Assembly (NCBI GenBank): GCA_964609395.1 | Contig: CAZSRU010000004.1 | Location: 6,263-70,262 of the forward strand | Source: an uncultured Victivallales bacterium | Lineage (GTDB): Bacteria; Verrucomicrobiota; Kiritimatiellia; UBA8416 | Reading direction: 5' to 3' | Length of the DNA: 64,000 bases | In this document: positions 2,940 through 41,802 of the stretch, in pieces | Layout: each line of letters opens with the position of its first letter | Position numbering within the stretch: the first letter of the stretch is position 1 | Position numbers and translations under genes: made by a program | The notes under the pieces: generated by a model | What the model was told of the DNA's origin: nothing | The model's input: only the letters and a program-made list of their open reading frames with translations | The model's database searches: none

Positions 2940-4056
2940 CCATCCCCTCCTCTTCCGTGACCGGAGTTGCCCGTTGCCGGTAGTAGGCGCCCAGCAGCCC
3001 CGCGCGGGTGGTCATCCGCCGTGCATGCTCCTTCCAGCGGCGGGCTGTACGCCAGGCCCTGGTCCGCCAACCGGGACGATCATGGATCAGACGGAAATGC
3101 AGTACCGGACGGGCTCCGATATAGTCCTTGAACAATGTCAGATTGAGACGGGGCGACCCGCCGAAGTTGATGGAGAGAGGTGCGCCCCATTCCTGCCGCA
3201 TGGCGAGCGAGACCTTCCAGTAGAGCGCCGGGATCACCGTATGGGCCTCGGGATCCGCCTGGTAGGCGCAGCGCCACAGGTAGACCGTGCGGTCGTCACG
3301 GCTGAGCAGCGCGATAACCGCCGCCTTGAGTTCACCCTCGGCGGTTCTGGCGGTGAAGAGACGGCCAGTATCCCATGCGTGCAGCTCCTTCATCCGGCGG
3401 CGCAGGTCCGCATCCCAGCAAGGGAGCGGCACCCAGTCGAACTTGGTGATCAGTTGCCGGTAGAGGACCAGGAATTCATCCACAGCCTGCCCCCAGGTTT
3501 CAAAGCCGAACCGCAGCGTTTCCATTGATCGCCTGATCAGGCGACGCTTCTCGCGGTTCATGCGGTCCCAGACCTGGTCCGGATCATCCATGTCCCACAC
3601 ATGCGTGTATAGCGGCACCGCCGCCCACCCGGCATAGAGGAACGGGCGCACATCCGTCACGGCAGGATGCGTCTCGGCCTCGATGATGTCGATGAAGCCG
3701 GACTGGGCGGCAGCCAGCGCCTGCATGACATCGATGCGCTCGCGGGCGTGGTGGACGGAGCCGGACTCCAGTTCCGGGTGCAGGAAAGGACCGGCGTAGA
3801 AGAACTCGAAATAGGTTGAATAGCGGAATCCCGCGCGAGTCCGGTATGGCAACGCCCATGCACCACGCATGGTGCCATCGGTGCCGAAGACTGCCACACG
3901 GTGAAAACAGACGCCATAGGAATCCGTCCGCGCGATCATTTCCAGGCATGCACTGCGCAGGAAACTGTTGGCGGCGGGTGCTATCCCGACCAATGCGTCC
4001 CAGGCTGTGTCATGCACGGCGCTCACGGTCACGGACTGGCAGGAAGCCAGAATCAT
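2932..4056 (-). CDS. FemAB-family/GNAT-fold protein (type found in exosortase/PEP-CTERM-associated EPS loci)
   Basis: Table ORF 2932..5229 is over-extended (antisense to the kinase gene); plausible start ATG 4054-4056 preceded by GGAGGG; ~374 aa with FemAB-like length and motifs. Confidence 0.55.
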   Translation of the reverse strand: MILASCQSVTVSAVHDTAWDALVGIAPAANSFLRSACLEMIARTDSYGVCFHRVAVFGTDGTMRGAWALPYRTRAGFRYSTYFEFFYAGPFLHPELESGSVHHARERIDVMQALAAAQSGFIDIIEAETHPAVTDVRPFLYAGWAAVPLYTHVWDMDDPDQVWDRMNREKRRLIRRSMETLRFGFETWGQAVDEFLVLYRQLITKFDWVPLPCWDADLRRRMKELHAWDTGRLFTARTAEGELKAAVIALLSRDDRTVYLWRCAYQADPEAHTVIPALYWKVSLAMRQEWGAPLSINFGGSPRLNLTLFKDYIGARPVLHFRLIHDRPGWRTRAWRTARRWKEHARRMTTRAGLLGAYYRQRATPVTEEEGMDV

Positions 4057-4248: not shown

Positions 4249-5688
4249 ATGAGCAACGCAGTTTCCGGAGCAGGGATGGCGATTAGGAGCGACTTCAAGG
4301 AGGTCTGCGACGAGCGCTCCTGCCGCGTCCTGATGGATGTGCCGACGGTGGCCGTGCAGGGTTACCTCGCCGACGGGACCACCGTGTTCTGGAACCGCGC
4401 CTCGGAACGGTTTTACGGGTTTACGGCCGAGGAGGCCATCGGGCGCCCGCTGACCGACCTGATCATCCCCCCCGAGATGCACGACCATGCCAGGAAAGGC
4501 ATCCGGGAAATGGTCGAGACCGGCAAGGCGGTTCCGGCAGGGGAACTGATGCTGATGCGCAAGGACGGCTCGCGCATCCCGGTCTACTCCAGCCACACCG
4601 TGATCCGGATGGAGGGGGAGACGCCCCAGCTCTTCTGTCTCGATGTCGACCTGACCCGTTGCCGCCAGGCCGAGGAACGGCTCCGAACGATTGTCGATTG
4701 CCAGCTTGAGTTCGGGCACGACACCAGGGCCAACATCAACCGGCTGGTGACGATCTGCGGGCAGGAGATGGATGCCGCCTGCGCCCTCTACAACCGGCTT
4801 GACGAAGGGATGCTCTGCTCCATCGGGCAATGGCACACGCCCCCCGGCTTCCAGGATCGCAACAAGCCGGCAGGGCATATCTGCAACGACGTGATCCGGC
4901 AGGGCGGCGAAGAAGCGGTGGTTATCCGCAACCTGCAGCAATCCGACTACCGGACCACCGACCCGAACGTGGCCAGCTACGGCCTCCAGACCTATGTAGG
5001 CGTTCCCGTCAAGAGCCAGGGCGAGACGGTCGGGTCGCTCTGCGCGGTCTACCAGGTGGACAAGCCGCCGACGCGCGAGCAGACCGACTTCATCAGGCTG
5101 ATCGGCATGGCCATCGGGGTCGAGGAGGAGCGGCAGGAGGCACTGGACCTGAATGAGGCGATTGCAGGCATGCTCCAGTTGCTCCAAAGCCTGGTCGGCT
5201 GCGAGACCGAACTGAATTGGATCCCGCAAGACGGGCTGTGGCTGACGTACATCGATTCAGGACAGGTCGTGCAGATTCTGACCAATCTCTGCGTGAACGC
5301 CCGCGATGCCATCGGCGGCGGAGGTGGCCGCGTCGCGATCACGACCGCCAACGTCGTGCTGGACGAACCCTACTGCTGCACACACGAGCACTGCCGGGCC
5401 GGTGACTATATCAAGCTGACGGTCGGCGACAACGGGTGCGGGATACCGGCAGACGTTCTCGCCCATGTATTCGAACCCTTCTTCACGACCAAGCCGGCAG
5501 GCAAGGGTACCGGTCTCGGCCTGTCAACGGTCTACGGGATCATCAAGCAGAACAACGGTTGCATCACCCTCTCCAGCCGTCCGGGGGACGGGACCGTGGT
5601 CGATATCTACCTGCCGCGACATACCGGGTCCCTTCCGACCGGGGACGCGTCGGATTCGGCAGGCGGAGGGGCGGAGCCATGCCGGTGA
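4249..5688 (+). CDS. PAS-GAF sensor protein with HATPase_c (GHKL) domain but no recognisable H-box
   Basis: ATG 4249 preceded by AGAAGGA (alt. ATG 4219); PAS ([22 protein letters not shown]), GAF, then X-region directly followed by N/G1/G2 boxes ([25 protein letters not shown]); region homologous to the DHp helix-1/His of the paralog at 18096-20075 (VAHDFNNML) is absent. Confidence 0.7.
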
Positions 5689-8600
5689 GGATACGGGGAC
5701 TGACGGGAACAGCGGGACGTCGCGCCCGATGGCGCCAGATGCTGGTGGTCCTGCTGGCATTGACGGCGGCGGCAGGGGTGTTTATCGCCAGGACGATACA
5801 CCAGGTCGATCAGGCGATGCGCGACGAGTGGTGCCAGCGCACCGTGCAGGCGGCACACACGCTGGCAGGCGACACCGTCGAGGCAATCAACGCCGACAAG
5901 ACGGGCAAGCAGGACACGGAGGCCCGACTGCGGCTCGGCATCCGCCTGGCCTCGTTCCGTGCCGCCACTCCAGACTGGGGCTTCGCCTTCCTGCGGACCC
6001 GCCCGCCAACCGGGCGTCTCCTCGCCTCCGCAGGCACCGTACCCACCTGCATGCTGCTGGGCCGCCCGCTTGGAGAGCAGGCGGAAGCGGTCAAGGCGGC
6101 CAGCACCAGAGCGCTCGAGACGGGACATGGCGTGGTCATCGGTCCGTACACCATCGAAGCAGGACGTTTTGTCAGTGCATTCGCACCGGTACGCGAGGCT
6201 CCGGGAGGCGAGGTGGTCGCTATTCTCGTGATCGGGATCGACGCCTATCGCTGGAAACAGGAACTCGTGCAGCGCACGGCACAGCCCGTCATCTTCTCGC
6301 TCGCACTCCTGGGCGCGATCGTCACGCTGGTATCGAGCCATCTCGCCCGGGTCGGCATCCGGGATCGCGAGGCATTCCTGCGGACCACCATCAACGCGCT
6401 GGCACAGCCGTTCCTGGTGATCAATGCCGACACACACCAGGTCGAGGTGGCAAACGCGGCGGCAGGCGGCGACGCCGTGATCGGCCAGTCTTGCCACAGC
6501 ACCATCATGGGCCGGGAGGCTCCTTGCAGCGGCGAGCATATCCCCTGTCCGCTGGAGCGGCTGCGGCTGGAGCGGAAACCGGTCGTCGTCGAGCACACCG
6601 ACCTTGCGCAACCGGAGGCACCCCGGTATTCCGAGGTGCATGCCCACCCGATCCTCGACGGGCGCGGGAGGCTCGCGCATATCATCGAGCACCGTATCGA
6701 CATCACCGACCGCAAGCGGGCCGAGTTCGAACTGCTCCGGCAGACCCGGATGCAGGAAATCCTCACCTCGATTTCCGCGACCTACATCAACCTTCCGCCG
6801 GAACTGGCGGACACGGCCATCGAGCGTTCCCTTGGGGAGCTGGGCACCTTCGTCGGTGCCGAACGCGTCTACCTGTTCGACTATGACTTCGCGCAGCAGG
6901 TCTGCACCAATACCCATGAGTGGTGCGCCGATGGCATCGCCCCGCAGATCAACGAGCTTCAGGCCGTGCCGATCGCGATGGTCGAGGACTGGGTGGCAAC
7001 CCACCGGCAGGGGCGCGTCATGCTGATCGAGGACGTCTCGGCACTGCCACCGGACAACGGCGTACGGCAGATCCTCGAGCCACAGGGGATCAAGAGCCTG
7101 ATCGCCGTACCCCTGATGGATGGCGATGCCTGCCTCGGGTTTGTCGGGTTCGATTCGGTTCGACGGCATCATGCGTATACCGAGTCCGAACAACGGCTGC
7201 TGACCGTGTTCGCGCAGATGCTGGTCAATGTCCGCAAGCGGCGGGACATGGTGGCCGCGCTGCATCAGAGCCGCGAGGAGGCGGAAGCAGCCAACCAGGC
7301 AAAGAGCGCGTTCCTGGCTAACATGAGCCACGAGATCCGCACCCCGATGAACGGGGTGATCGGCATGACCGACCTGCTGCTGGATTCGGAATTAACGGCG
7401 GTCCAGCGGCGCTATGCCGAAACCGCAGTGGCCTCGGCGGAGTCGCTGCTGGCCTTGATCAACGATATCCTCGACTTCTCGAAGATCGAGGCCGGGAAGC
7501 TGGATCTGGAGTCGCTTGATTTCGACCTGCGGGATGTCATGGACGAGGCCGTCATGCCGCTGGCGCTGCGCGCACAGGGAAAGGGTGTGGAGTTCATCTG
7601 CGCGATCGCGCCCGATGTGCCGGCCCGCTTGCGCGGGGACCCGGTACGCTTGCGGCAGGTGCTGGTCAACCTGACGGGCAACGCCGTCAAATTCACAGAG
7701 AAGGGCGAAATCGCGGTCCAGGCGGAGTGGATCGGAGAGAGGGCGGTCACCGACCTGCCCTCGACAGCGCCCGATGCGGGAGGGGGAACCGGCAGGCCGG
7801 TCGAGATCCGTTTCTCCGTACGGGACACCGGCATCGGCATTCCGGACACCAAGATGGAGCACCTGTTCCAGAAGTTCAGCCAGGTGGACACCTCGACCAC
7901 GCGGCGCTACGGCGGCACCGGGTTGGGGCTGGTCATCGCCAAGCAGCTCGCCGAGATGATGGGTGGCCGCATCGGGGTGGATTCGGAACCCGGCAAGGGC
8001 TCCACCTTCTGGTTTACCGCCTGCTTCGAGAAGGCGGCGACGACCAATACGCCCAGTAAGCCGGCGGAGGACAGCCCGGCTACACTGCCGCACGCGCACA
8101 TCCTGATCGTCGACGACAACGCGACCAACCGGGAGGTGCTCTCCGCCCAGTTGCAGGCTTGGAGCATGAGGACAAAGAAGGCCGACGACGGTCCATCGGC
8201 CCTGGAGGTCATACGCCGGATGCATGCCGGCGGCGACCCGTTCCAGGCGGCGATCCTGGACATGCAGATGCCAGGCATGGACGGCATGGCACTGGCCCGC
8301 GTGGTGCAGGCGGATCCCGCGTATGCAGGTGTGAAGCTGATCCTGCTGACGTCCATCGGTTACCAGGGCAGCGCGGAGCAGGTTCGTCAGGCGGGGTTCT
8401 GCGCGTGGCTGACGAAACCGGCCCGCCAGTCTGACCTGTACAACAGCCTGGCCGAGGCTCTCACACCGGACAGGGCGGACGCCGGCACCCCGGTACCGGA
8501 AATGCCAGCCACTCCGGTTGCATTGCAGACAGGTGGCGGGCGCGTCCTGCTGGTGGAGGACAACCCGGTCAACCGCATGGTGGCGGAAACGATGCTTGAT

Positions 8601-8972
8601 CGTCTCGGGATCGGCCATGTCTCGGCGTCGGACGGCGCGGAAGCACTTGCCGAACTGGCCCGCACCCCCTGCGACCTGGTGCTTATGGACGTGCAGATGC
8701 CGGTCATGGACGGGCTCGAGGCGACACGCAGGATCAGGAGCCAGGAGGCGGAGAACAGAGGGCAGAGGGCTGAGGGCAGAGGGCAGGAGGTCGGAGGGCA
8801 GGAGACAGCCGGGGCGAAGCGTCTGCCGATCATCGCCATGACGGCTAACGCCTTCGCGGAAGACCGCGAACAGTGCATCGCGGCCGGGATGGACGATTAC
8901 ATGACCAAACCGGTTTCCTTCCACGCGCTGGCGGCAATGCTGGCGAAGTGGCTGCCCGGCAGCGCGTCTTAA
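5679..8972 (+). CDS. hybrid sensor histidine kinase (TM-periplasmic sensor-TM-PAS-GAF-HisKA-HATPase-REC-REC)
   Basis: Start ATG 5679 after GGAGGGGCGGAGCC, overlaps previous stop by 8 nt; H-box [17 protein letters not shown]; two receiver domains ([15 protein letters not shown]..., [14 protein letters not shown]...[13 protein letters not shown]). Confidence 0.85.
8752..8806 (+). repeat. intragenic tandem heptamer tract (AGAGGGC)n in second receiver domain of kinase 5679-8972
   Basis: gagaacAGAGGGCAGAGGGCTGAGGGCAGAGGGCAGGAGGTCGGAGGGCAGGAG encodes low-complexity insert [21 protein letters not shown] after RRIRSQEA. Confidence 0.6.
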
Positions 8973-8989: not shown

Positions 8990-11698
8990 TCATGCCTTTA
9001 TCGCATAGCGGGCGGCTAAACCCGCGAGTGTCATTTGATCCTGGATCTGGTCGTGGGGGATGAGGAGGTAACGCCAAGGCTTGCCGCCGTTCTCCTTGGC
9101 GTGTGCCGTGGCGTGTTCGCACCATGTTGCGGCTGCATTGGCTTTGGCGATAACGGTTTCATCCGTCATCTCTTTTGACTGTTTTGGTTCGCAGAGCAGT
9201 TTCTCCGTCTGCGTCTCAACGACGAAATCAGGCTCGTAGGATTCGTCATGGCGAAAGTGAATCTGGAAGTCGCCCTTGGCGGGTTTAAACCACTTCAGAA
9301 CGGTGCCTTCATTCTCGAGGATCACCGCGAAACGACGTTCGGAGTCGGAGTCGAATTTCTGGATGGGGTAAAGGCATTTGCCAAAACTGCCGAATACCAT
9401 CGAGCCGATGTGGTTACGCTGGCCCTCGGGAACGGGAACGCGGAAATCACGTGTGTTCTCGTCTGCCGCAGCGGAGTAGTTGTTCGACCGGAGTGTACGG
9501 AAGCCTCTTGTCACGTGGGCCTCGTATTCACTCGCGGATTCGACAAAATGCTGTTGCATTTGAGAATGGATCAGGTTCGCGAGGGCCTGCTGGTGGAACT
9601 GGAGGACATTGATCACGTCGTCTTCCGTGGTCAAGTAAGATTGCAGGCGTGAAACGACCTGCCCTGCCAGCTTATACAGCAGGGCCGCGTGTTCGTCGTA
9701 ACTGACATCGTCGAAGTCGACCAGACCGCGAATCAGGTAGTCCTCTGGACGGTTTTCCATAACGATGCCGGTCCCATCCAGCAACCGATACCGCTGGTGC
9801 TCGTGCAGATGCTGGATCAGGATGTCCTGAGAGACCGGCTGGAGGTTGATATTCCTGACATCGAGGTTAAAGTCATTGTAGCCGCAAGAGACTTCACCTT
9901 TGGGAAGCACCACGATTTTGGGGATATCAATGGAGAGGTCGCAGAAAAGCGTCGTCGTGTCCTTGACGACCTTGGCGACATTCGTGATCTCGTAGACACC
10001 GGCTAATTCGCCTTGGGCCGGACGAACGATCTCCTGAACCTTCTGAACGATCTCCTGCTGAACGGCGGCATCATGGAGCTGATCGCTGCCCTTCAGGCGT
10101 TCGTACTGTTTGATGACTTGAAAGGTCGCCTTGGCAACCGACTGGTCCTCCGGCCTCTCGAAGAGCGTACGCTGCACTGCGGCCGGCTGGCCAAGGGCTG
10201 CGGGACGGGCAGGAACCATTCCACCGGAAAGGGCTTGCTCGAAGGCGCTCTTCACCTCTACGGCTTTGCGTCCGGCGTCGGGAATATCCCGACCGATCAC
10301 GACACCCGCCCGAATAATCGAGGTCGGATCGTTGGCGTGGTCCACGATCTCCTGGAACTTGTCGTGCGAAACGATGGTCAACCGGTCCACCGCCGGAACG
10401 CCTACGCGTTTCCCGTAGGGAAGACGCAAGCCACGCCCGATCGACTGTTCGACGAGAGTGCGCGAATTCGCTGCCCGGAGCGGCACGATCGTGTAGAGGT
10501 TCGTGACGTCCCAGCCTTCCTTGAGCATATTGACGTGGATGACGATCTCAACGGGATTATCCGGATGCTCGACGGTCAGAAGCTGCTGGACAACGTCATC
10601 CTTTTCCTCCCCGCGTATGTTGGAGTGGACTTGGATGACCTTGCCCTTATAGCGCCCCTCAAAGAACGCATCGCCTTCGATCAACTGTTGCAACGTGTTG
10701 GCGTGGGTGGTATCGGTTGCCACGACAAGCATGAACGGCTTGACAATGGGCTTGTCGTTATTGCGGGCGTAGATCTCCAGTTCGACCTTCGTGTTCTCAT
10801 GGATGCGCACGCCATCTTCCAATTTCACCTTTTCCAGCCCCTCGGGCGAGTAGGCGTTGGCATCGAAGTTCTCGCGGGTGGCGACAGCGGGCTCCTTTAC
10901 GAAACCGTCGTCCATTGCCGAAGAAAGCGGATAACTGTAGATGACGTTATTGAAAGGCACCGATCTGCCCCCGGTCTCCACCTGCGGCGTGGCAGTCAAC
11001 TCCAGTCCAAGAATAGGCTTGAGCTCGTTAATAGCGCGTACACCTGCGGTGGCGCGGTAACGGTGACTCTCATCCATGAGTACCACCAGATCTTCCAGGC
11101 CGGCGAGATAATCAAAGTAGCTTTCGCCGATGTACTCGCTTAGACGCTTGATCCGGGGAGCGTTCCCGCCACGCACCTCGCTGTTGATCTTTGAGATATT
11201 GAAAATATTGATGTGGACATCCTGTCCCCAGTCTGTCCCCGGCAACATGTCGGCACGACGCACGCCGCGACCGTCCTCGTAGGTGTCACCGGTCACGACA
11301 AGCGGGGGGTGGACGGCAAACTCACCGACCCCCTTGAAAACATATTTGGGCGTATTGGGTGTAAAATCGGCAATCAGCTTGTTATAGATTGTGAGATTGG
11401 GAGCCAGTACAAAGAAGTTGCGAATACCCTCTGACTGATAGAGGTAGGTTATGAACGCGCCCATGAGGCGCGTCTTTCCGACGCCCGTTGCCAAGGCGAA
11501 GCAAAGCGAAGGGAAATCCCGTTCAAACCCCTCGACCGAAGGGAACTCACTGCGGATCGTGTTCAATGCCGCGGCAGGATCGGCATCCTTGGACAAGTCG
11601 ACGATCTCGCATAAGCGGGCCAGAATTTCGAGAGAATCACGCTGCGGGGTGCGGAGACTCAGGCGATTGCTGATGGAGTTAATGTGCTGAAGCGCCAT
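8990..11698 (-). CDS. res: Type III restriction enzyme Res subunit
   Basis: 902 aa; helicase motif I (LATGVGKTRLMGAF) and II (VLMDESHR); C-terminal PD-ExK nuclease (YEPDFVVETQTEKLLCEPK); start 4 nt after mod stop. Confidence 0.85.
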   Translation of the reverse strand: MALQHINSISNRLSLRTPQRDSLEILARLCEIVDLSKDADPAAALNTIRSEFPSVEGFERDFPSLCFALATGVGKTRLMGAFITYLYQSEGIRNFFVLAPNLTIYNKLIADFTPNTPKYVFKGVGEFAVHPPLVVTGDTYEDGRGVRRADMLPGTDWGQDVHINIFNISKINSEVRGGNAPRIKRLSEYIGESYFDYLAGLEDLVVLMDESHRYRATAGVRAINELKPILGLELTATPQVETGGRSVPFNNVIYSYPLSSAMDDGFVKEPAVATRENFDANAYSPEGLEKVKLEDGVRIHENTKVELEIYARNNDKPIVKPFMLVVATDTTHANTLQQLIEGDAFFEGRYKGKVIQVHSNIRGEEKDDVVQQLLTVEHPDNPVEIVIHVNMLKEGWDVTNLYTIVPLRAANSRTLVEQSIGRGLRLPYGKRVGVPAVDRLTIVSHDKFQEIVDHANDPTSIIRAGVVIGRDIPDAGRKAVEVKSAFEQALSGGMVPARPAALGQPAAVQRTLFERPEDQSVAKATFQVIKQYERLKGSDQLHDAAVQQEIVQKVQEIVRPAQGELAGVYEITNVAKVVKDTTTLFCDLSIDIPKIVVLPKGEVSCGYNDFNLDVRNINLQPVSQDILIQHLHEHQRYRLLDGTGIVMENRPEDYLIRGLVDFDDVSYDEHAALLYKLAGQVVSRLQSYLTTEDDVINVLQFHQQALANLIHSQMQQHFVESASEYEAHVTRGFRTLRSNNYSAAADENTRDFRVPVPEGQRNHIGSMVFGSFGKCLYPIQKFDSDSERRFAVILENEGTVLKWFKPAKGDFQIHFRHDESYEPDFVVETQTEKLLCEPKQSKEMTDETVIAKANAAATWCEHATAHAKENGGKPWRYLLIPHDQIQDQMTLAGLAARYAIKA

Positions 11699-11700
11699 GA

Positions 11701-13485
11701 TTATTTATCTCCCGCAGGTTTGATGGTATCCATGTCGAAAAGTGTCGGGCCGGAATCCTTACCCTTGCCGAATTTCCGCGCCGGGCGCTTCGGCACAACA
11801 GAGGCGACGGAGGCTGCTGCTGGCAAGATTTCTGGCGCTTTTGGTAAGTTACTAATCTCCAGCGAATAATCGTCGTGCCCCCATTCGCACTTTTTCAGAA
11901 CCGCCTTGGGGATCTTCTTTACGGTTAAATTCTCAAACTGGCTGACATCGCACTTGAAGGCGGCACAGCAAACCAGAAGACTTCGATTCGGGCCGACGTC
12001 GTCGCTGAGTTTGATCAGCATCTCCTTGGTCATCATCTGCGTGGTCACATAGATGAAATCCTCCTCCGAGCTACGCCCCTGCTGCCAATATACATCAGGG
12101 TTCGGATCGAAAGTGAAGCCCTCCAGCTTGCACAACGCCTCGGCCAGCATGCCGGCATTGAAGGCGGGATTGATGACGGGGTTATCCCACTCGTCCTTGG
12201 CAATCAGAGACGGCCCAAGCCGGTAGTAGCGGAAGCCGCCGCCACCTTGCCAATTAACTGCATTGCTGATCCCGCCCTTATCCCCGCCGTCAATGACTTT
12301 CTGCAAGCGCGGAATGATGTGCGTGTGGCAATGCTCGCCCAGTTCAACCATGATCCACCGCCGCCCCATCTTATGGGCCACCGCGCCGGTGGTGCCGGAA
12401 CCCGCGAAAGAGTCGAGAACCCAGTCGCCGGGGTTGGATGACAACGAGAGAATGCGATGGACTAGTTTCTCAGGCTTTGGCGTTCCAAAGGGATCATCTT
12501 CGTTGAACGTCTTGGCCTCCTGCATTGCGATCCGATTTTCGCCGACCTCATCATAGTGCCAGGTTGTCATCGCAACGACGCCCTTGTCCTCAATCTCCGA
12601 GAGAAACCGCTTGATGCAGGGTTTGTTGCTGCCATCCTTGCCGAAGTACACGCGGTTGTCTGCCCTGAGCCGCTCGTATGAGGATTTCACATAGGCCCAT
12701 GCTCTGCCCTTTGCTGGCAGCGCAACTCTACCGGAAGGAGTGATGATCTCGTAGATATTGTCGCTGTGGCCGGTCTTTGCAAACTGCTTTCCTCGCTGCC
12801 CCGAAGAAAGACCAATTGTGAAGTCGCCAGGGAACCACGGGCCGCGCCCGTACGACTTGCCAGACTCATCAATGCCGTCGTGATCATCCGACTGTTTGTA
12901 AATTGCATTCTGTGCTTACGTCCGCTCCAGTTTCCCGGGGCGCCATAGCTCTTTGTTCTTGGCGAAGACCAAAATGTGATCGTGGCTCTCTGATAACCAC
13001 ACAGCATTGCTCTGAGGAGATGACTTCTTCCACCAGATCACGTTTGTGACGAAGTTGATGCGACCGAATATCTCGTCCATCAGAACCTTGCAATAGTGTC
13101 CCTCATTATCGTCGAGATTCACCCAGATTGATCCATCATCCGTTAGCAGCCGCCTCAGAATTTCAAGGCGGTCCCGCATCAGTGAAAGCCAAATCGAGTG
13201 TTCCACGCCGTCGTCATAGTGTGTGAATGCGGAACCCGTGTTGTAAGGCGGATCGATGTAGATGCACTTGATCTTGCCGGTGAACTCCTGTTCCAGCGCC
13301 TTGAGGGCGAGAAGGTTGTCGCCGAAGATCAGGCGATTATCGAAGAGATCGTGATTGGTCACGCGCTGGGCGGCGTGATAGGATTTCTCCGGTTCCTCGA
13401 CCAGGATGCGCGGTTCCAGTTGCGGCCGGTTCTCCTTGCCGATCCAGGTCAGTTCAAGCCGTGTGTTATTTTTTGCCATAATCAA
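11701..13485 (-). pseudogene. mod: Type III R-M Mod (N6-adenine/N4-cytosine beta-class methyltransferase) interrupted by one in-frame TAA
   Basis: Table ORFs 12916..13485 (DPPY motif IV: CIYIDPPYNTG) and 11701..12690 (motif I: VLDSFAGSGTTGAV) are in the same frame; the 225 nt between them translate without stops; only stop is TAA (tta on + strand) at 12916-12918; intact length would be ~594 aa. Confidence 0.75.
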
Positions 13486-13517
13486 TCCTTGGTCGTTGCG
13501 CGCGGAGGGGCGTGAGC

Positions 13518-16043
13518 CTATGTAGAGATTCCAATTGAGACAGGCACCTGAAGTTGAATACGAACGGGGGTGTAAAGATCGACTTTTGTTTCCGGTGTTT
13601 CAATCGAAACGATCAAGGCATAACGGGTTGTGCGATCCCACTTGCCTTTCTGGGGGCGTACGCGCCACCAACCAATGAGTGGCGTTATCACGATTAGGTT
13701 TGACTCGGCGAGCTCTGCTGCCGTCCCCGACCAGATATCCGAATGGATAGAACCTTTGTTGCGGGCCTGCCCAAGAAGCCAATGACTCGATGGGCTGTTG
13801 GTGCCCGGATGCCCGTTTTCCTCATCCCTGGCCGCATCATTAATGCGCCGCTCAAACTGCCCTCTATCCTCGGTGGGCGAATTCAGGTCAAAGCGGAGTC
13901 CATGGGAAGCATAACGGTAGCGGTCTTTCCATCCGACCTCGCCGGGACTCGGCTCGATGAAATAGGACAGCGTGACCCGCATACGGACAGTGGCATCCGG
14001 TGCCATCTGCTGCAAGGCTTCCTTTGGCCACGGCAACTCATAGAGATGCATGTCGCGAGTGCGGTAGCCACCGCTCTCCCTTTTATCGAACGGCTGGATT
14101 GCCTCTTGCGCGATAAGAGTCAGTCGGTTGCTGGCTGAATGCAGGGCCTTCTCAAGACTTGGAACCCCGTAGCCACAGGAACGCAACAGGCGTTTATAGG
14201 CCGTCTTGCTTTCGTCAGCGCAAAACTGCTGTTTGAGTGTATCGGTCCAGTCAGCGGAGTGGATCATCAGCCCGCGGACGGTTTCCGGCCAGAAATCAGG
14301 ATAGCGGACGCTGATCTGTGCGGCCATCCAAGCCGCTTGGGCGGTTGCGGCGCTGGTCATGCAAAACGGATAGAAATGTGCCTTTTGAGGATCGAAGAAG
14401 GTGGACAGCAATGACAAGTCGGCGCATTGGCTGATGAAGTTCGATGTCTGTTCCCGTGCCAGATTACCGCCTTCCAGGACAAGCTCTGGTTTAATGGGCC
14501 AACTGTCATTCCAAACCGTTGACGTTGTGCTAAACGGCGAGAGGCCGCCGCTTGGGGCAATGGGTGCATAACCGGACATACTGGGTTCACGAATCTCGTC
14601 GAGCTGTGTGAAAGCCCCGATGGTGAGAGCATTCCATGACTGAGCGGGATCGTGAACGGAATCCGTTTCTTGTGCGTCTGGGTAAGTGCCGCGGCCGTGT
14701 TCTTGCGAATTGCCGGCACTGACAATCAGCAAACGCCTGTGATCATCCTCCGCCCCCGAGCACAACTGATCCAGCGCTCCCGACCAAGACGAGGGGCGTC
14801 CCTGGTCGCGGTTGTCCGTCGTTGTCACAGCCATGCAGCCAATGCGTCGACGTTCGGGTGCTTGTATCTCGGCCTTGTAGATGGATTCTGCCGTGATGTG
14901 TCCCCATAGATGCGGGGCATTCCCTCCAGTTGGAGGGAGGATTTTGACGGACTCAAGGCAATGCGCCAGATTGACAGAACCCTTGCCAAGCATGAGTTCC
15001 TGCAAATCGTTGTATGCAGCGAGCCCCGCCATCAAGGTCCCGTGCTTATCGTGATCGTGTGTCCCCCAGGCTGCATCGAAACTGGCGCAATCGTCGGCGG
15101 ACAAGACGGGGGCCAGCAATGGATGACCGCGGTTGACGCCGGTATCGAGAATGCAAATAGACGTATCGGAATTCGGAACCACGTTGATTCTTTCGAGAAC
15201 GGATTCGACCCATTCGGCTTGATCCTTGTTATCGAGATCAAGCCAGAATGCAGCGGTTTCCTTGGCGCGACGATATTCCGCCACATCGTCGGATAATCGA
15301 CTAATGGACGCAAGCTGATCGCGGTTGACATGCACGAGCTTCACCGCCCTATCCGGGAACTTGATGCAGCCCGGTTTGCAATTAATTTGCTGGCTCGTGA
15401 GTAGGGTTTCAAACCGCTGGATGATGTCGTCACTGTCGGAGCTCAACCAGACTTCACACCATTCCGGGCTAGCGGCGGGGATTAAAGCCTTCTCATCCTG
15501 CCAAAAGGATTCAATTTCCAAGGCTTTACGAATACCGGAAATGCTTTCCAATAACACAGCGTGCTTAGGGTTATCCGATCTACTGTTCTCTTCTGTGGCG
15601 TACTGTTCGATTTTATTAAAGAAGGCGTCCTTCTTGCTGTGCGGGATAAAAATCGTGGCATAGGTAACCTTTTGCCCATCTTCTCCGGAAGATGGGCCGA
15701 CCGGTTCGCACCTGACGTTAAGCAGGCGCGTTCTATCAGCAATATCGCGAGGAACAAGATTCTCGAGGCTCTTGGTTACGAGTTGATACCCAGGCTCCCC
15801 TTTAATCTCGACAAAGACGCCATTTCGACCCGTATGGTGAACCACCTGCTCCTGCTTTGCCTCTGCCCATGCGGCAGCGAGCTGCTGTTTGAGAAAAGCA
15901 CTATGCCCGGCGCGATCGCGTGTGGGTACCGGGGGCGTCGTAACTTGAGATTGGCCGGGAGAGAATGTGCTCGTTTCGAATTGCTTGATTAACAAATGAG
16001 GGAGCTGGCTTTCCATCGCGACTATGCAACCTTCCGTCCACAC
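13518..16043 (-). CDS. subtilisin-like S8 serine peptidase, large cytoplasmic-type (IetS-like)
   Basis: 841 aa; S8 triad elements in D-H-S order: ICILDTGVNRGH, DKHGTLMAGLAAY, CMTSAATAQAAWMAA, plus oxyanion AGNS; no obvious signal peptide; overlaps upstream AAA ATPase gene by ~20 nt. Confidence 0.7.
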   Translation of the reverse strand: MWTEGCIVAMESQLPHLLIKQFETSTFSPGQSQVTTPPVPTRDRAGHSAFLKQQLAAAWAEAKQEQVVHHTGRNGVFVEIKGEPGYQLVTKSLENLVPRDIADRTRLLNVRCEPVGPSSGEDGQKVTYATIFIPHSKKDAFFNKIEQYATEENSRSDNPKHAVLLESISGIRKALEIESFWQDEKALIPAASPEWCEVWLSSDSDDIIQRFETLLTSQQINCKPGCIKFPDRAVKLVHVNRDQLASISRLSDDVAEYRRAKETAAFWLDLDNKDQAEWVESVLERINVVPNSDTSICILDTGVNRGHPLLAPVLSADDCASFDAAWGTHDHDKHGTLMAGLAAYNDLQELMLGKGSVNLAHCLESVKILPPTGGNAPHLWGHITAESIYKAEIQAPERRRIGCMAVTTTDNRDQGRPSSWSGALDQLCSGAEDDHRRLLIVSAGNSQEHGRGTYPDAQETDSVHDPAQSWNALTIGAFTQLDEIREPSMSGYAPIAPSGGLSPFSTTSTVWNDSWPIKPELVLEGGNLAREQTSNFISQCADLSLLSTFFDPQKAHFYPFCMTSAATAQAAWMAAQISVRYPDFWPETVRGLMIHSADWTDTLKQQFCADESKTAYKRLLRSCGYGVPSLEKALHSASNRLTLIAQEAIQPFDKRESGGYRTRDMHLYELPWPKEALQQMAPDATVRMRVTLSYFIEPSPGEVGWKDRYRYASHGLRFDLNSPTEDRGQFERRINDAARDEENGHPGTNSPSSHWLLGQARNKGSIHSDIWSGTAAELAESNLIVITPLIGWWRVRPQKGKWDRTTRYALIVSIETPETKVDLYTPVRIQLQVPVSIGIST

Positions 16044-16990
16044 GCATTTTGACGGTCCGCAATCGCTGCAATCAATTCACAAGCCTCGACATGCTTTTTA
16101 TCGCTAAGAACCACACTCTTAATCGCATCCCGGCAGGCATGGTCAATCTCTGCATGGCTCAAGCCGTTACAAGCGTCGATCACACGTTTCCATGAGAAGC
16201 GTGGCGCGATAAATGTACCCAGCACATTTTCAATCAAAGGTTTGACCTGATCGACTGATGGGCGCTCGTAATGCAGCACATCGTCGAAACGGCGGAACAA
16301 GGCATGGTCCAGCAAGCCGGGATTGTTTGTGGCGGCAATAATCAGGCTGTCTGATGTGTCCTGCTCGATGAATTGAAGAAAGGCATTTAGAACCCGCCGG
16401 ATTTCGCCGACGTCGTTATCGTGCGAGCGATCTCCGCCAATAGCATCGAACTCATCAAAGAGATAAACGCCATGAGCCTGCTGCATTAGATCGAATATCT
16501 GCCGAAGCTTAGCGCCCGTCTCCCCCATAAATTTAGTAACAAGGCGATCCACCTGGATGGTGTTCAGTGAAAGATTCAATTCCTTGGCCAAGACTTCCGC
16601 TGTCATGGTCTTGCCGGTTCCGGGAGGACCAACGAGCAGAATCTTGCGACGGTGAACCAATCCATGCTGCTTCAGCTTGTTCTGCTGCCGATATTCATGG
16701 ATGATTCGATCAAGCCGGGATCTGATGGTCGCCGGCACAACCATAGCCGAGATTGGCGTTAGAGGCTCCGTGGACAGGACCAGCCCTTTGAGATCAGCAG
16801 GGAAGCTAAGCAGCCGCGGACCCGCCTTCTTGCGTTCGGAGTCTATGATTTCGCGTAAATCGTGGGCCAAGGCGGCATGGCCCTGTCGAGCCTCCCCTGC
16901 GGCCAACTGCAATGAAACCGAGTAAAAGCGTTCGGCGTCATCACTGAAGTGCGACCGTATCAAAGACTTAAGTTGTTCGGCAGTAGCCAT
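16022..16990 (-). CDS. AAA family ATPase (IetA-like)
   Basis: 322 aa; Walker A LLVGPPGTGKTMTAEVLAKEL, Walker B VYLFDEFDAI; sits in AT-richer block directly upstream of S8 peptidase. Confidence 0.8.
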   Translation of the reverse strand: MATAEQLKSLIRSHFSDDAERFYSVSLQLAAGEARQGHAALAHDLREIIDSERKKAGPRLLSFPADLKGLVLSTEPLTPISAMVVPATIRSRLDRIIHEYRQQNKLKQHGLVHRRKILLVGPPGTGKTMTAEVLAKELNLSLNTIQVDRLVTKFMGETGAKLRQIFDLMQQAHGVYLFDEFDAIGGDRSHDNDVGEIRRVLNAFLQFIEQDTSDSLIIAATNNPGLLDHALFRRFDDVLHYERPSVDQVKPLIENVLGTFIAPRFSWKRVIDACNGLSHAEIDHACRDAIKSVVLSDKKHVEACELIAAIADRQNACGRKVA

Positions 16991-17111
16991 ATTAACCTCT
17001 CAATAAAACGTGGTCGTAGCTTAGCAGAAGCTGCGTTTAATTACATCACAAAACAGCTCTTGTCATAATTAGTAGGAAGCGAAACGATGCGCAATGCCCA
17101 CCCCTCAACGT

Positions 17112-18035
17112 TTACCCGCCACTCATGGAGGGTTCGCCGCCGTCCAGGCAGACGCGGTTACGGCCTTCCCTTTTCGCACGGTACAAGGCGGTGTCCGTTG
17201 CCAGGAACAACGTGTCGATGGTATCACCGTCGCGAACGGATCGGAGACCGATGCTGACCGTAATGGCAATATCCCCGGCCCGTGTCGATATCGGATTGTC
17301 CGCCACTATCATCCGAAGCCGTTCGAACAAAAGCCAGGCATCGTTGATCCCGGCGATGGCAATGACCAGGAACTCCTCGCCTCCGATCCGCCCGAAGTAG
17401 TCGTAATCCCGCAGGCCGCCTTCCAGCAGGCGAACCAACCCGCGCAGCGTCTCATCGCCAACCCCGTGACCGTATGTATCGTTGATTCTCTTGAAAAAAT
17501 CGATATCCAGAATGCCCACGGCCAGTCCCTGCCGGTGACGGGACTCGCGAGCAAGCTCGCGCGCAAGGGCTTTTTCAATCGCCCGGCGATTAAGGACACC
17601 CGTCAACGGGTCGTGCGAGGCTTCGTGCGCAAGTGCATCGCGCGTCCGGTATAGTTCTTCCTGCATCGCGATCAGGCGGCACCCCACTTCGACGCGGGCG
17701 CGTAACTCGCCGACGTCGAACGGTTTGGCCAGATAGTCGTCGGCCCCGGCCTCCAGCCCGGCGATGATGTCCGTCTTCCCGCTCTTGGAGGTCAGCATAA
17801 TCAGGTAGGGCGGCCTGTCGGTTTCCAGGGCGCGGACCCGGCGAATGACCTCCAACCCATCCATACCCGGCATCATCCAGTCGAGAATGGCTAGCCGGGG
17901 CGCATCCGCCTCCTGCAGCTTCTCCCACGCCGCAGAGCCATCAGTGACTTCCGTCACCTCGTGCCCGGCTTTCCCCAGGACAGCCGCCAGTATGGTTCGG
18001 CTGGTCAAATCGTCTTCAGCGATCAGTACACGCAT
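17112..18035 (-). CDS. response regulator with GGDEF diguanylate cyclase output (PleD/WspR-like)
   Basis: REC (VLIAEDDLTSRTIL...LDWMMPGMDG) + GGDEF with GGEEF active site (RIGGEEFLVIAIAG) and upstream RxxD-like region. Confidence 0.85.
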   Translation of the reverse strand: MRVLIAEDDLTSRTILAAVLGKAGHEVTEVTDGSAAWEKLQEADAPRLAILDWMMPGMDGLEVIRRVRALETDRPPYLIMLTSKSGKTDIIAGLEAGADDYLAKPFDVGELRARVEVGCRLIAMQEELYRTRDALAHEASHDPLTGVLNRRAIEKALARELARESRHRQGLAVGILDIDFFKRINDTYGHGVGDETLRGLVRLLEGGLRDYDYFGRIGGEEFLVIAIAGINDAWLLFERLRMIVADNPISTRAGDIAITVSIGLRSVRDGDTIDTLFLATDTALYRAKREGRNRVCLDGGEPSMSGG

Positions 18036-20137: not shown

Positions 20138-22936
20138 TTATTCGTAACTTTCCATCTTGTGCCGCAGGTGGTCAAAGGCCTCCACTAATGAGGTCACGTG
20201 TTCCCTGGCGGCATCCAGATCCCCTGCCCTGGCCGCCTGCTCGATCTCAACGGCGATGCCGCGCAGGGCTTCACCGCCGACGTTGGCTGAGGCACCCTTG
20301 ATGGTGTGGGCATGTCGCTCGGCACCCGTTGCGTCGCCTGACTTCAGGAACGCATCAAGAGCGCTGATCTGCCTGGGTAGGTCGTTCAGGAATCCGCGGA
20401 TAACCGTTGCGGCCAGATCCTCGTCATCCATCAGCCGCTCCAGCATACCCGCCCGGTCCCAGACCGAAGGAGAGACGGCAGACTGCAGACTACAGACTTC
20501 TGAAACTCCACTTTTGTCCTGCTGTTGACCGACTCCGGTCTGCAGTCTGCGGTCTGTAGTCTGCGGTCTCCCCCCGGTCTGTAGCCTGCGGTCTCCCCCC
20601 GCCCCACCCGGCAGCCATTTTGCCAGCACGGCCGCCAGTGCTTTCGGCGATATGGGCTTGGCAATGTAGTCGTCCATGCCGGCTTCCAGGCACATTTCGC
20701 GATCACCCTGCATGGCATGGGCGGTCATGGCGATGATGGGAATGCTCCGATTGCGGATTGCGGATTGCGGATTGCGGATTTGCCTTGAGGCTTCCAAGCC
20801 ATCCATTACGGGCATCTGGACATCCATCAGGACGAGGTCGTACGTTTCTCGTTCCAGCGCCGCCAGCGCCGCGACGCCGTTGCCAACCGTATCGGTTCGC
20901 AGGGCCAGCTTCCTGAGAATCCCCTCGGTCACGAGCCGGTTGACTGCGTTGTCCTCAACCACGAGGATGCGCACGTCGCGCAGGCTTGCCAACTCCATGG
21001 CGGAAGCTGCCGCCGTTTCGCTATCGTCCGCCCCTTCCACTGCCGAGCCTTGCTCCAGGCCGAGAGTGAACCAGAACGTCGTGCCCCGGCCTTCCTCCGA
21101 TTCCACCCCGATCTGCCCCCCCATCAGTTCCGTCAGTTGCCGGGCAATCGCCAGCCCCAGTCCCGTACCGCCGAACCGGCGCGTGCTGGAGGCGTCCACC
21201 TGACTGAACTTCCTGAACAGCAAGCCCTGCTTGTCCGCCGGAATCCCGATCCCCGTGTCGGTCACCGAGAAGCGAAGGCAAATGCCGCCTTCCGGTTCCG
21301 GGTCACCAGATGACTGCCGACTGCTGCCCGCTGACCGCTGACTGTCGATTTCTGCATCCTGCCCGCTGACTACTGACCGCTGACTACTGACCTCCGCCCC
21401 CCCCCGCTCCACCCGGACCGTGATTTCCCCCTTCTTCGTGAACTTCACCGCGTTGCCCACCAGATTCACCAGAACCTGCCGCAGCCGGAACGGGTCGCCA
21501 CTGAGCCGGTCCGGAACATCGGGATCGGCGGCGCAGATGAACGCGACACCTTTCCCCCGCGCCTGCAGCGCCAGTGGCGCCGCGACCTCGTCAAGCAGTT
21601 TGCGCAGGCTGAAATCGCAGCGATCCAGCTCCAGTTTTCCGGCCTCCATCCTGGATAAGTCGAGGATATCGCCGAGCAGGGCCAGAAGCGACTCGGCACT
21701 GTTCATGGCCGTCTCGGCAAAGCGCCGCTGCTCGTCGTTCAGCGCCGTATCGAGCAGCAGGCCGGTCATGCCGATGACCCCGTTCATGGGAGTGCGGATC
21801 TCGTGGCTCATGTTGGCCAGGAATTCGCTCTTGGCCCGGTTGGCCGCTTCAGCCTTGCCGGCCAGTGCCTGGGCCTGGGCCGTGGTTTCCTCAAGTTGAC
21901 GGTTGATCGCCAGCAGCCTCTGCTCGGCCTGCTTGCTCCTGGTGATATCGTGAAGAATGACCAGATAGCCTGTAAGCCGCTCCGTATCCGTTTGAAGCGG
22001 CAGGATGCACAAGTGCCAGGTTTCCACCCCCAGATGCACCTCCTGTTCGCCGATCTCCCCGGCGATGCCGCTGCCTGGCAGCCGGTTGAGACTCGACACC
22101 ATCCCCTCAAAATGCTGTTTGAATACCGGATTGCGGATGAGACGGGCACCCACGGGATTCGCGTTGACAATGTTGATCTGCCTGTCAAGAACGATCAGCG
22201 CGTCCGGCAGACGGTCAAACAAGGCATCCAGCGCCTGGGGAAAGACATCGAAAAGCCCCACGCGAAACACGCCATGGAACAACAGCAGCCCCATGACCAT
22301 GAACCCCACGGGGGTCAGGTCCAGGAACCCTCCGGGCTTGAACCCCATGCTGTAGGCCACATTGAGAGCAAAGGGAATCGCGATGCCGGCCAGGATGTAT
22401 CCGACCCGTCGGAGGTCCATCCCGCGCACCCGGAACAGCAGGCGGATCATCACCGCGATCGACGCCACCACGCATAGATAGGAATAGACCAGATGGACCC
22501 ACCAGAAAGGGCCCGGCGACAGCACCTGATGGGAGAAGCCGCCGAATTCCCCGAGGCTCACGCGGGCGTAGTACAGGGAATGCACGGGATTGGTGGCCAC
22601 CAGCGCAACCACCCCTGCCGGGATCAGGAAGAGCGCGATCACCCGTCCCCGCGTCAGGAGATGCCGTTTGCCCGCATGGGACAGGCAGAAGCCCAGCAGG
22701 CAGGCCGGCACGGAAGCCAGTCCGACATAGGCCACGGCGGTAGTCCACCGCATGCCATCCAGGCTCCGCAATCCCAGTTCAACGGAATATGCCAGCGACC
22801 AGATCGAAACCCCGCCCATGAGCGCCGCAATCCATGCCGCCGACGGCACAGCACCGCGCTGCCGCCAGGAGCGCAGGGCCAGCCAGAGGCTGGTCGCCCC
22901 GGCCAGCCAGATCGAAGGGATAGCGGCGTTCCACAT
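20138..22936 (-). CDS. hybrid sensor histidine kinase with N-terminal 7TM sensor, PAS, HisKA, HATPase, REC and C-terminal Hpt
   Basis: 932 aa; seven predicted TM helices at N-terminus; H-box [21 protein letters not shown]; REC ([13 protein letters not shown]...[13 protein letters not shown]); Hpt ([17 protein letters not shown]). Confidence 0.85.
20460..20590 (-). repeat. intragenic inverted + tandem repeat block with C6 tracts in REC-Hpt linker of kinase 20138-22936
   Basis: gacggcagactgcagactacagac ... gtctgcagtctgcggtctgtagtctgcggtctccccccggtctgtagcctgcggtctcccccc; encodes [22 protein letters not shown]. Confidence 0.6.
20750..20781 (-). repeat. coding-strand heptanucleotide tandem repeat (AATCCGC)x4 inside receiver domain
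   Basis: + strand gcggattgcggattgcggattgcggatttgcc; encodes [10 protein letters not shown] at the RQIR...PIIAMTA loop. Confidence 0.7.
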
Positions 22937-22939
22937 ACG

Positions 22940-24063
22940 TCACCGCCTCCACAAGGGGAAGGCGAACCAGACTTCCCAGTAGGAATCCGAATAGGCCGGA
23001 CTGTTCCGTGCCCGTTCCAGATGCCAGTAGCGCACTTCGGCAAACAACGGAATCGGCATGACACCCTTCTCGTAATCCGTCATCCCGTCGTACCCGAGTG
23101 CCGCCTTTCCCCAGAGGTAGTCCTTGCCGGTCGCATCGCGCGCACCGTCGATCCTCGACGCACTCTCCTCGCGATACCACGCGCCGACCGTGGCGGTCAC
23201 CCGCCTGGCCAGCCAATGCGTCACCAGCTCCAGTTCATGGGTCATGTAACGGCCAGGTGTGTGGTGAACGTTGACGACGCCCTCGCCGGGCCGGAACACA
23301 TCCCGGCTGCCTTCCAGGGGATACTGCAGTTCAAAGCGGTAGTTCAGGTTCGCATTCGGCAATAGCGCAAAATCCACAACGTGATTGAAAAGCGCCGCCT
23401 CGCTTTCGCGGGTGCCGACATTGAGTTTTTCCGTATTATGGGAGAAATCGGTGGACAATTCCTGTGTCCGCCATCCGGCCCCCGCCGCCAGCTTCAAGCG
23501 GGGCATCTCATGGTACTGGTGATAGAGCCAGAGATGGGCGTCCCCCCAGCCGTCGCCCTTGAGCGTCTCGTTGCGGAACCCCATCGCCTCGAGTTGGGCG
23601 AGAATCGCCTGATCGAGCGGCGGGGGGGCCGCGATATCCACGCGCTGGCGAACCTCGCTGCTGAACCTGGGAATCTGGAGGTGAAAGGTGGTCCGGGCCG
23701 TCAGGCCGGCATAGAGATCGAAGACAACATACTCATAGTCCGCCTCATAGCGTCCCGCGACAAGCTCCCCGCCGAGGGCGGCATTGAACTGATCGACCAG
23801 GTCGGAACCGATCGGCCGGTCACGCCGCTGGTTGTCCCAGCCGTTGCGGTACTCGAAAGGCGCATAAAGCAACGCACCGGCCCAGACACCCTCCGGAACC
23901 ACGGCTGCCGAACCGGCACCGGATGAAAGAGGGGCGATTATGCCAGCCAGAAGGAGCGCGAGGACAATAACGAACCGGTGCCCGGCAGGCAGGGGGCGGC
24001 GTAATCGTCTGTCCCCACCTGATCGAACCTGTATTAAGAAGCGATTGAATTGAGATTCCGTCA

Positions 24064-24067
<4 letters not shown>
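22940..24067 (-). CDS. hypothetical exported protein (signal peptide; possible outer-membrane beta-barrel)
   Basis: Start at tandem ATGATG 24062-24067 overlapping TGA of upstream kinase (ATGA); hydrophobic N-terminus [25 protein letters not shown]; aromatic-rich C-terminus ...[13 protein letters not shown]; sandwiched between two paralogous kinases. Confidence 0.45.
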
Positions 24068-29379
<5,312 letters not shown>

Positions 29380-40697: not shown

Positions 40698-40775
40698 TAG
40701 GAATATGAATCATGAATGCGGAACTTACAAGGCGTTGTGTGCGGGCGATGACGGAGACCGGCGAGGGATCGCTGG
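40628..40775 (+). repeat. ~145-bp interspersed repeat, copy 1 (rep1)
   Basis: ~85-90% identical to copies at 41803-41950 and 43979-44122 over ...gcgatcattttgtgcatggcaatgactctgggaatgtgataggaatatgaatcatgaatgcggaacttataaggcgttgtgtgcgggcgatgacggaaaccgg.gaggg. Confidence 0.75.
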
Positions 40776-40921
40776 TGCCGCTGTGCCGTAAAATCGTGCG
40801 CAATTTCCACGTGGCCGAGGTTCCGCATCGGAGCAGGCAGACGAAAACAAAGCAAAGCGTCTTCTTGCAAACGTGACCAGCGTCGGTCATAGTCTATCGC
40901 AAAAGCGCAGGCAGGTACTGG

Positions 40922-41722: not shown

Positions 41723-41802
41723 TCCCATTCCAAATCTGGTTTGATACTAGCCTGTCTTAGTGAAATAGCCAATCATTTTTTCAGTTGGCATTTGGGGTAC
41801 TC

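Follow-up and report, generated by a model that had tools for sequence, protein, structure and literature searches.

A heptanucleotide repeat in the canonical receiver loop of hybrid histidine kinases from an uncultured Victivallales bacterium

The stretch of DNA analyzed here (the window, 64,000 nucleotides from an uncultured Victivallales bacterium) encodes three paralogous hybrid histidine kinases, designated K1, K2 and K3, each of which carries a tract of tandem seven-nucleotide units in the coding sequence of a receiver domain. The tracts had been interpreted as potential phase-variable sites (the original prediction). Their occurrence at the same receiver position in all three paralogs was borne out by repeat detection and domain placement, but the K1 and K2 tracts are not insertions; they are ordinary coding sequence for a canonical surface loop located between helix α3 and strand β4. 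The result for this locus is mostly deflationary, since what appeared to be a contingency repeat is normal conserved-loop coding sequence and phase-variable kinases are unsupported. We favor, with a probability of about 0.6, a reading of the tract as an in-frame heptanucleotide simple sequence repeat (SSR), made by slippage and homogenized from a pair of Ile-Arg codons, that purifying selection has held at the canonical loop length. The kinase genes and their receiver tracts are the following.

Positions 20138 to 22936, minus strand: K1, a hybrid histidine kinase of 932 residues with HisKA_7TM, HisKA, HATPase_c, Response_reg and Hpt domains.
Positions 24064 to 29379, minus strand: K2, a hybrid histidine kinase with CHASE4, PAS, GAF, HisKA, HATPase_c and two Response_reg domains.
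Positions 5679 to 8972, plus strand: K3, a hybrid histidine kinase with PAS, GAF, HisKA, HATPase_c and two Response_reg domains; the reading frame is open from 5436.
Positions 20749 to 20780, minus strand: receiver tract of K1, an exact heptanucleotide repeat (coding strand AATCCGC four times, then AATC) encoding 10 residues of the α3-β4 loop, flanked by Q and R.
Positions 24246 to 24277, minus strand: receiver tract of K2 (AATCCGC three times, AGTCCGC, then GATC), encoding 10 residues in the second receiver domain.
Positions 8756 to 8801, plus strand: receiver tract of K3, an imperfect (CAGAGGG)x6.4 array in the loop of the second receiver (80% match, 5% indels), encoding 17 residues.

The receiver tract and the loop that it encodes

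The HisKA/HATPase and receiver blocks of K1 and K2 share about 90% DNA identity. In all three kinases the tract lies in a Response_reg domain, after the sequence R[RQ]IR that ends helix α3 and before PIIAMTA of strand β4. On the plus strand the K1 tract reads GATTGCG repeated 4.57 times, a run of 32 nt with period 7 and zero mismatches, for which Tandem Repeats Finder (TRF) gave a score of 64, 100% match and 4.6 copies. The fourfold AATCCGC unit had been described correctly, although at coordinates (20750-20781) one base off. The K2 tract, likewise described as three AATCCGC units plus a variant, comprises 4.6 copies with 88% match and is perfect from 24256 to 24277. The K3 tract was confirmed as a heptamer array, albeit an imperfect one, and the receiver loop that contains it has 30 residues vs the usual 10, so it is a true insert. 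A low-complexity insert, which had been offered as the alternative to a switch, therefore describes the K3 loop and not the receiver loops of K1 and K2.

The loop was extracted from the 120 best homologs, which yielded 105 loops, 81 of them exactly 10 residues long with the consensus [DN]P[QRK]SAV[RQL]NH (for example NPQSAVRNHQ and DPQSAVRNHS). The loops of K1 and K2, with 10 residues each, have this canonical length. The K1 receiver matched PF00072 with E = 4e-27 over 114 residues, spanning model positions 1-109 of 111, and its loop differed from those of the solved receivers 7c1j, 8phn and 7qz2 by -3, +1 and 0 residues, respectively (best match E = 2.8e-33). With a full-length PF00072 match, a DVQMP motif and a 10-residue α3-β4 loop, K1 is a CheY-like receiver of the canonical DPQSAVRNH-loop subfamily. 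The loop length in the homologs, the Pfam match and the solved structures together establish that the tract is normal loop coding sequence, and because the array has the canonical loop length, the K1 and K2 proteins have ordinary receivers. The nearest named homologs of K1 were metagenome-assembled genomes of the Desulfobacterota type.

The repeat is nonetheless a property of the DNA. A probe of three AATCCGC units, with up to three mismatches allowed, was run on the window and on 100 dinucleotide-preserving shuffles of it. Five overlapping matches were found in the window, at 20746-20780 and 24250-24277 in K1 and K2, and none in any of the 100 shuffles, so that the arrays exceed the chance expectation by far; the window had no further (AATCCGC)n copy outside these two receiver loops. 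Given the peptide and the codon usage of the window, the loop codons of K1 had a probability of 2.3e-5 (3.1e-5 when the three kinases were left out of the codon table), and AAT, CAA and GCA are minority codons, with usages of 0.30, 0.20 and 0.13. K1 had 0 mismatches to a perfect (ATCCGCA)n sequence vs 7.2 expected from its own codon usage, and K2 had 2 vs 9.1. Chance alignment of the codons of a conserved peptide, with no repeat-generating process, would agree with a motif conserved across phyla at the same length, with the mere two transitions that separate K1 from K2, and with the partial lag-7 periodicity that the peptide by itself imparts to distant homologs. However, this explanation is very improbable in view of the codon probabilities, the four additional independent heptamer arrays in the same three genes and the recurrence of heptamer arrays at this loop in other phyla, both described below. 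The K1 tract is a true DNA-level repeat.

Since 7 and 3 are coprime, (AATCCGC)n is translated into the same heptapeptide, NPQSAIR, in every one of the three frames. The array is free of stop codons in all six frames, the two strands giving NPQSAIR and ADCGLRI. In K1 it begins with the conserved Ile-Arg codons that close helix α3 (ATC CGC A...), and the frame downstream is kept only by a net change of three units in either direction (21 nt, 7 residues). Seven-base repeats can thus persist within a conserved domain if they contain no stop and give the same peptide in three frames, and therefore screens that flag every non-triplet repeat in an open reading frame as a switch give false positives in environmental genomes.

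Constancy of tract length and the question of switching

A contingency locus at this site would undergo frequent gain or loss of 7-nt units, reversibly truncating the kinase after residue ~730 and splitting the population into phosphorelay ON and OFF cells. Several observations speak for such a switch, 1) the tract is a perfect repeat, an exact run of 32 nt, inside an open reading frame, 2) heptamer tracts occupy one position in three paralogs, 3) a change of one or two units in K1, as had been predicted and was confirmed in silico, leads to a stop 15-27 codons on and to a product of 734-746 residues that lacks everything from β4 onward and the Hpt domain, while a three-unit change remains in frame, and 4) heptanucleotide tracts mediate phase variation in H. 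influenzae, one of them inside the hmw1A open reading frame (PMC2651432). However, the K1 tract has only 4.6 copies, compared with 6-38 in the cited examples (PMC2651432), and it encodes a canonical loop of canonical length. It is located late in the gene (codon 719 of 932) and in the cytoplasmic receiver of an environmental bacterium known from a metagenome, whereas contingency tracts typically belong to surface, restriction-modification or host-interaction genes and lie in the promoter or close to the 5' end. The K3 and HATPase_c arrays are degenerate, with 70-80% match, and AATCCGC arrays elsewhere have a fixed modal length among the matches listed (see below).

The length of the tract was constant in every comparison. 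The receiver blocks of K1 and K2 were 89.7% identical over 350 nt with 0 gaps, and the tracts differed solely by two G/A transitions (V/I and D/N). Since the two receivers align without gaps and the tract has changed by substitutions alone, its length has been held over 10% divergence. The comparison with related strains that the original prediction had called for was possible with one further assembly, contig Ga0207193_1000690 (locus L001) of JGI metagenome 3300020048, which was 99.81% identical to positions 10138-32936 of the window. There were 43 clustered single nucleotide polymorphisms (SNPs) and 0 indels over 22.8 kb, a span that covers all of the K1 and K2 heptamer tracts; no copy number had changed, and the contig encodes a protein identical to K1. 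A protein search of 5.8 billion clusters revealed no truncated or frameshifted K1 allele; the identical protein was followed by a relative with 60% identity. Repeat number was thus not polymorphic among these consensus sequences (the two assemblies, K1 and K2, and the protein clusters), a comparison of limited power. Similarly, contigs of the lineage of the ortholog P0003, taken from four samples, were 99.96-99.99% identical and aligned without a gap over the heptamer arrays of that lineage, one of which has 9 copies. Overall, the canonical loop, the constant length in K1 and K2, the absence of indels between assemblies and the low copy number leave the phase-variable interpretation unsupported, and we consider a contingency locus improbable.

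Two side observations concern the sequences compared. The differences between the window and the JGI contig cluster in dense patches at 10141-10322, 13330-13405, 14040-14628 and 26172-26296; the second has 17 mismatches in 76 nt and lies inside a small N6_N4 methyltransferase-like reading frame. The patches look like strain-level recombination tracts or local hypervariability. In the P0003 lineage, an intergenic (GACCAAT)x9.7 array is present at 2901-2971 of locus L083, with a second copy ~330 nt away at 3229-3259; one other contig (L084) reaches this far, and it spans the second copy only, with no gap.

Heptamer arrays at other sites and the origin of the repeat

All of the period-7 arrays that TRF detected in the window fall in the K1, K2 and K3 genes, which make up 18% of it. 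Besides the receiver tracts, they are as follows.

Positions 21311 to 21392, minus strand: HATPase_c loop arrays of K1, degenerate (GTCAGYR)n, encoding 29 residues within an insert of ~36 residues in a variable loop.
Positions 25258 to 25327, minus strand: HATPase_c loop arrays of K2, of the same length as those of K1 and differing by point substitutions only.
Positions 20536 to 20601, minus strand: first arm of the linker between the receiver and Hpt domains of K1, (GACYGCA)n, including a 25-nt unit in 2.1 copies and two C6 runs, encoding 20 residues.
Positions 20473 to 20498, minus strand: second arm of the K1 linker, an inverted (AGTCTGC)n array.

The Pfam match to the HATPase_c domain of K1 extends over 149 residues, compared with 111 positions in the model, and the extra ~36 residues are short or absent in orthologs. 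The loop also contains a C9 run at 21397-21405 (G9 on the coding strand of K1, encoding R-G-G-A), the longest homopolymer in the window, which adjoins the heptamer arrays. K2 has GGGTGG at this site, 3 nt shorter, while the second assembly keeps G9. The G9 run is a more classical slippage-prone tract than the heptamers.

The linker of K1 was much as the original prediction had described it, with the ~25-nt tandem repeat, the inverted repeat and both C6 runs. Its two arms pair to form a long hairpin (-79.4 kcal/mol, z = -4.07) with inverted repeats of 18-21 nt and 86-94% complementarity. The segment is absent from the ortholog P0002, and P0003 has a different sequence at that place, so that an in-frame hairpin missing from an ortholog is present here, as in a palindromic insertion element; neither the window nor any other locus examined contained a dispersed copy of it.

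Heptamer arrays are not peculiar to this bacterium. The 487 kb surrounding 80 homologous receiver loci, which come from many phyla, contained more arrays of at least 3 copies with period 7 than with any other period (23 arrays, compared with 7 of period 6, 3 of period 8 and 10 of period 9). Receiver-loop inserts for which the DNA was available usually open with a heptad made of the Ile-Arg codon pair and one further base, which the later heptads repeat. The loop begins with ATCCGCA, four times over, in K1 and K2 and with ATCAGGA GCCAGGA in K3; in other loci it reads ATCAGGA GTCAGGA GTCAGCG GTCCGCA GTCAGAC and onward (L083, lag-7 identity 0.58), ATTAGGA ATTACAA ATTAACG (L208) or ATCCGAA ATTGGAA ACTTGAA (L010). 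In locus L207 the heptads are ATTAGGA ATTATGA ATTAGGA ATTATGA (lag-7 identity 0.65), an alternation that avoids the TAG codon of a pure ATTAGGA array. The arrays of locus L058 are an exception, with a register off the Ile-Arg codons. As far as the sequences indicate, heptads that start at the Ile-Arg codons fit a tandem duplication for which local sequence was the seed, whether through slippage or template switching, and not the insertion of a foreign element.

Some of these inserts consist of inverted arrays. In-frame hairpins were predicted in the receiver loop of a Nitrospiraceae homolog (L058 3190-3285, (GAGAGGC)n with inverted (GCCCCTC)n, z = -7.8) and of a Desulfobacteraceae homolog (L010 3200-3282, inverted heptamer arrays, z = -3.8), and in the HATPase_c loop of an Anaerolineales homolog (L065 2205-2300, (GAAGTCA)n followed by an inverted array, z = -3.8). 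The Anaerolineales array encodes EVRSQRSEV, where K2 has EVRSQRSVV in the same loop. Hairpins were significant only in these three inserts and in the K1 linker. A linker array, (TCACCAA)x4.9, was found in Planctomycetota. The receiver α3-β4 loop, the HATPase_c variable loop and the linker between receiver and Hpt domains are recurrent landing sites for heptamers in several phyla, which would explain many low-complexity inserts. Chromatium okenii has a further heptamer array, TAACTGA in 3.7 copies, downstream of its homologous kinase (L003 3955-3980).

The conserved loop peptide was itself scored for compatibility with a heptamer, as the fewest nucleotide mismatches between any synonymous encoding of the peptide and any perfect period-7 sequence. 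The minimum was 0 for the K1 10-mer, 1 for the family-consensus 10-mer and 2 for IRDPQSAVRN. For 4000 random 10-mers from the same proteins the median was 9-10 mismatches, with 2 or fewer in 3 cases, and 3000 shuffles of the same loop residues never fell below 4. The conserved loop is far more heptamer-encodable than expected by chance. Eight distant homologs with canonical loops had on average 10.5 mismatches to the array, where 12.2 were expected and 5.4 were the minimum possible, and all eight were nearer than expected. This excess of array-consistent codons is small, too weak to separate shared ancestry from maintenance at the DNA level.

A more far-reaching proposal, which we regard as possible rather than probable, is that the loop motif IR[DN]PQSAVRN of this multi-phylum receiver subfamily is a frozen (ATCCGCA)n heptanucleotide repeat that grew from the Ile-Arg codons of helix α3. 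On this proposal the seed site would have fired repeatedly across lineages, giving inserts whose unit is the Ile-Arg codons plus one base (ATCAGGA, ATTAGGA, ATCCGAA), with inverted arrays folding into in-frame hairpins in certain cases; the sole perfect array state among the homologs examined would be that of K1 and K2, and their array would be identical to the dispersed, apparently undescribed element of soil and sediment bacteria considered next. Peptide conservation alone would keep the periodicity once present. If the frozen-repeat origin is true, it provides a concrete path from the slippage of a non-triplet repeat to a conserved protein motif.

When JGI metagenome contigs were scanned for exact matches to (AATCCGC)x3, at least 120 loci (L087-L206) with at least 138 perfect arrays were found. 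Among the matches listed, the loci had unrelated flanks, a median GC of 0.59 and came from soil and sediment metagenomes; 33 of 124 arrays fell in the modal length of 32-33 nt, the commonest form was the very string found in K1 (AATCCGC four times, then AATC; 32 nt), 21 of 124 had an inverted (GCGGATT)n partner within 150 nt, and none was in a receiver context. Certain loci hold two or three arrays within a few kb. No dispersed array was found near the canonical receivers of the 80 genome loci. With its tandem 7-nt units, a length of about four units and recurrence at many unrelated loci, (AATCCGC)~4.6 behaves as a dispersed four-unit element, which is apparently undescribed; no relevant paper on the unit AATCCGC/GCGGATT was found in the literature. 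The preference for about four units speaks against arrays that expand and contract freely and is compatible with a role at the DNA or RNA level.

The K1 tract could accordingly be one copy of a dispersed functional element, for example a protein-binding site or an RNA regulator, that is tolerated because its translation fits the loop motif. Besides the number, the modal length and the inverted partners of the metagenome arrays, the closeness of all eight distant homologs to the array is consistent with this, and there are precedents, since the four-unit heptamers of Geobacter metallireducens carry an annotation as putative regulatory elements (PMC2700814), GGGNATC repeats show a four-unit preference (PMC4692102) and TAACTGA repeats have been proposed to be regulatory (PMC4679880). 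However, the function of the cited families is itself only putative, the unit has no further copy in the window and none of the listed metagenome arrays is in a receiver. Moreover, the K1 tract has no predicted RNA structure (z = +0.55) and no inverted partner, and no Rfam family reached its gathering score in positions 5000-30000. We judge a DNA- or RNA-level element unlikely, if somewhat less so than a contingency locus.

Local slippage under purifying selection would account for the K1 tract in the following way. The array would arise and become uniform through slippage or template switching with the Ile-Arg codons as the seed, and the same process would produce the arrays in permissive loops and linkers, namely the HATPase_c loop, the linker between receiver and Hpt domains, the K3 loop and the homologs of other phyla. 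Selection on kinase function would purge the out-of-frame states, and because it removes them the tract would be static on ecological timescales, a mutational liability that also supplies low-complexity sequence to loops and not a programmed ON/OFF switch. Several points weigh against this account, 1) a perfect tract of 4.6 copies is the state most prone to slippage and the frameshift phenotype is clear, 2) the stability comparisons were made with consensus assemblies, which are blind to minority length variants, 3) slippage in situ alone leaves unexplained that the identical 32-nt array is common elsewhere and that array length peaks near four units; this dispersal and length peak hint at a function at the DNA or RNA level or at a different generating mechanism, and 4) gene conversion from dispersed copies has no donor in the window, which contains no other (AATCCGC)n.

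Neighboring genes and comparison with known systems

Directly upstream of the 7TM kinase is a conserved gene of 343-381 residues with no Pfam match (window 22940-24085, L082 4966-5997 and L083 4894-5997). Downstream, the orthologous loci L082 and L083 have a receiver-PAS-kinase gene and, further on, a partner-switching set (Hpt-REC-SpoIIE-HATPase_c_2 and STAS) followed by exopolysaccharide genes. Elsewhere in the window, the stretches 10000-18000 and 40000-44000 have a lower GC content than the remainder of it (0.51-0.57 vs 0.60-0.69). Encoded in them are a ResIII helicase, N6_N4 methyltransferases, an AAA ATPase with a peptidase S8 and an AAA_21 (AbiEii-like) ATPase, and both stretches are probably defense-type islands that were acquired. 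None of the universal marker genes scanned for was present in the window.

Heptanucleotide long SSRs are a known class, of which the K1 tract is a further case; the new part is the candidate repeat origin of the motif and the dispersed element. Heptanucleotides are in excess among the long SSRs of large, GC-rich genomes of non-pathogens (Mrazek et al. 2007, as summarized in PMC4679880 and PMC4692102), with which the predominance of period 7 around the homologous receiver loci agrees. They are the most abundant class of long repeat, and they resemble the K1 tract in having few tandem 7-nt copies, in being attributed to slippage and in occurring in environmental bacteria (PMC4679880, PMC4692102). 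In these SSR surveys, intragenic units are reported to be mostly multiples of three, whereas in K1 a 7-nt unit is in frame within a conserved domain and motif.

A related family is Gmet_H4 of Geobacter metallireducens, in which four GGACCGG heptanucleotides in tandem occur at 49 genic and intergenic sites (PMC2700814). The four units compare with 4.6 in K1, a gene that also holds several arrays. However, the unit is different, and Gmet_H4 is a dispersed family in one genome, whereas in the window AATCCGC is confined to two paralogous receiver loops. The regulatory role of Gmet_H4 is a proposal (PMC2700814). Comparable in distribution are the TAACTGA direct repeats of Beggiatoaceae, Chromatiaceae (including Thiocystis violascens), Cyanobacteria and Bacteroidetes (PMC4679880) and the GGGNATC repeats of Xanthomonas and Nostoc (PMC4692102). 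Like (AATCCGC)n, each is a single heptamer that recurs over many genomes as short arrays in which one copy number is preferred. In contrast, they lie mostly between genes and are under-represented on the coding strand, and TAACTGA has forward stop codons, whereas AATCCGC is stop-free in six frames.

The phase-variable heptanucleotide tracts of H. influenzae are found in the hmw1A and hmw2A promoters, inside hmw1A as (AATTTTG)14 and in a TonB-dependent receptor as (AACAACC)n (PMC2651432). They share with K1 the 7-nt unit and, when within a reading frame, the frameshift that follows a change of one unit. However, they have 6-38 copies, vary among strains and belong to surface or host-interaction proteins of a host-adapted pathogen (PMC2651432), whereas the K1 tract has 4.6 copies, none of them varying, in a cytoplasmic signaling protein.

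The tandem repeats of Borg elements are reported to create new disordered protein regions (PMC9879509). In these elements, as in the kinases, surface loops or linkers accommodate in-frame repeat DNA, which adds a low-complexity peptide. The palindromic elements of Rickettsia are in-frame palindromic inserts in proteins and share this feature; the K1 linker and the inserts of L058, L065 and L010 are in-frame hairpins of the same general kind. The K1 linker differs from the palindromic inserts in that it is built of heptamer arrays and has no dispersed copies in the window or among the loci examined.

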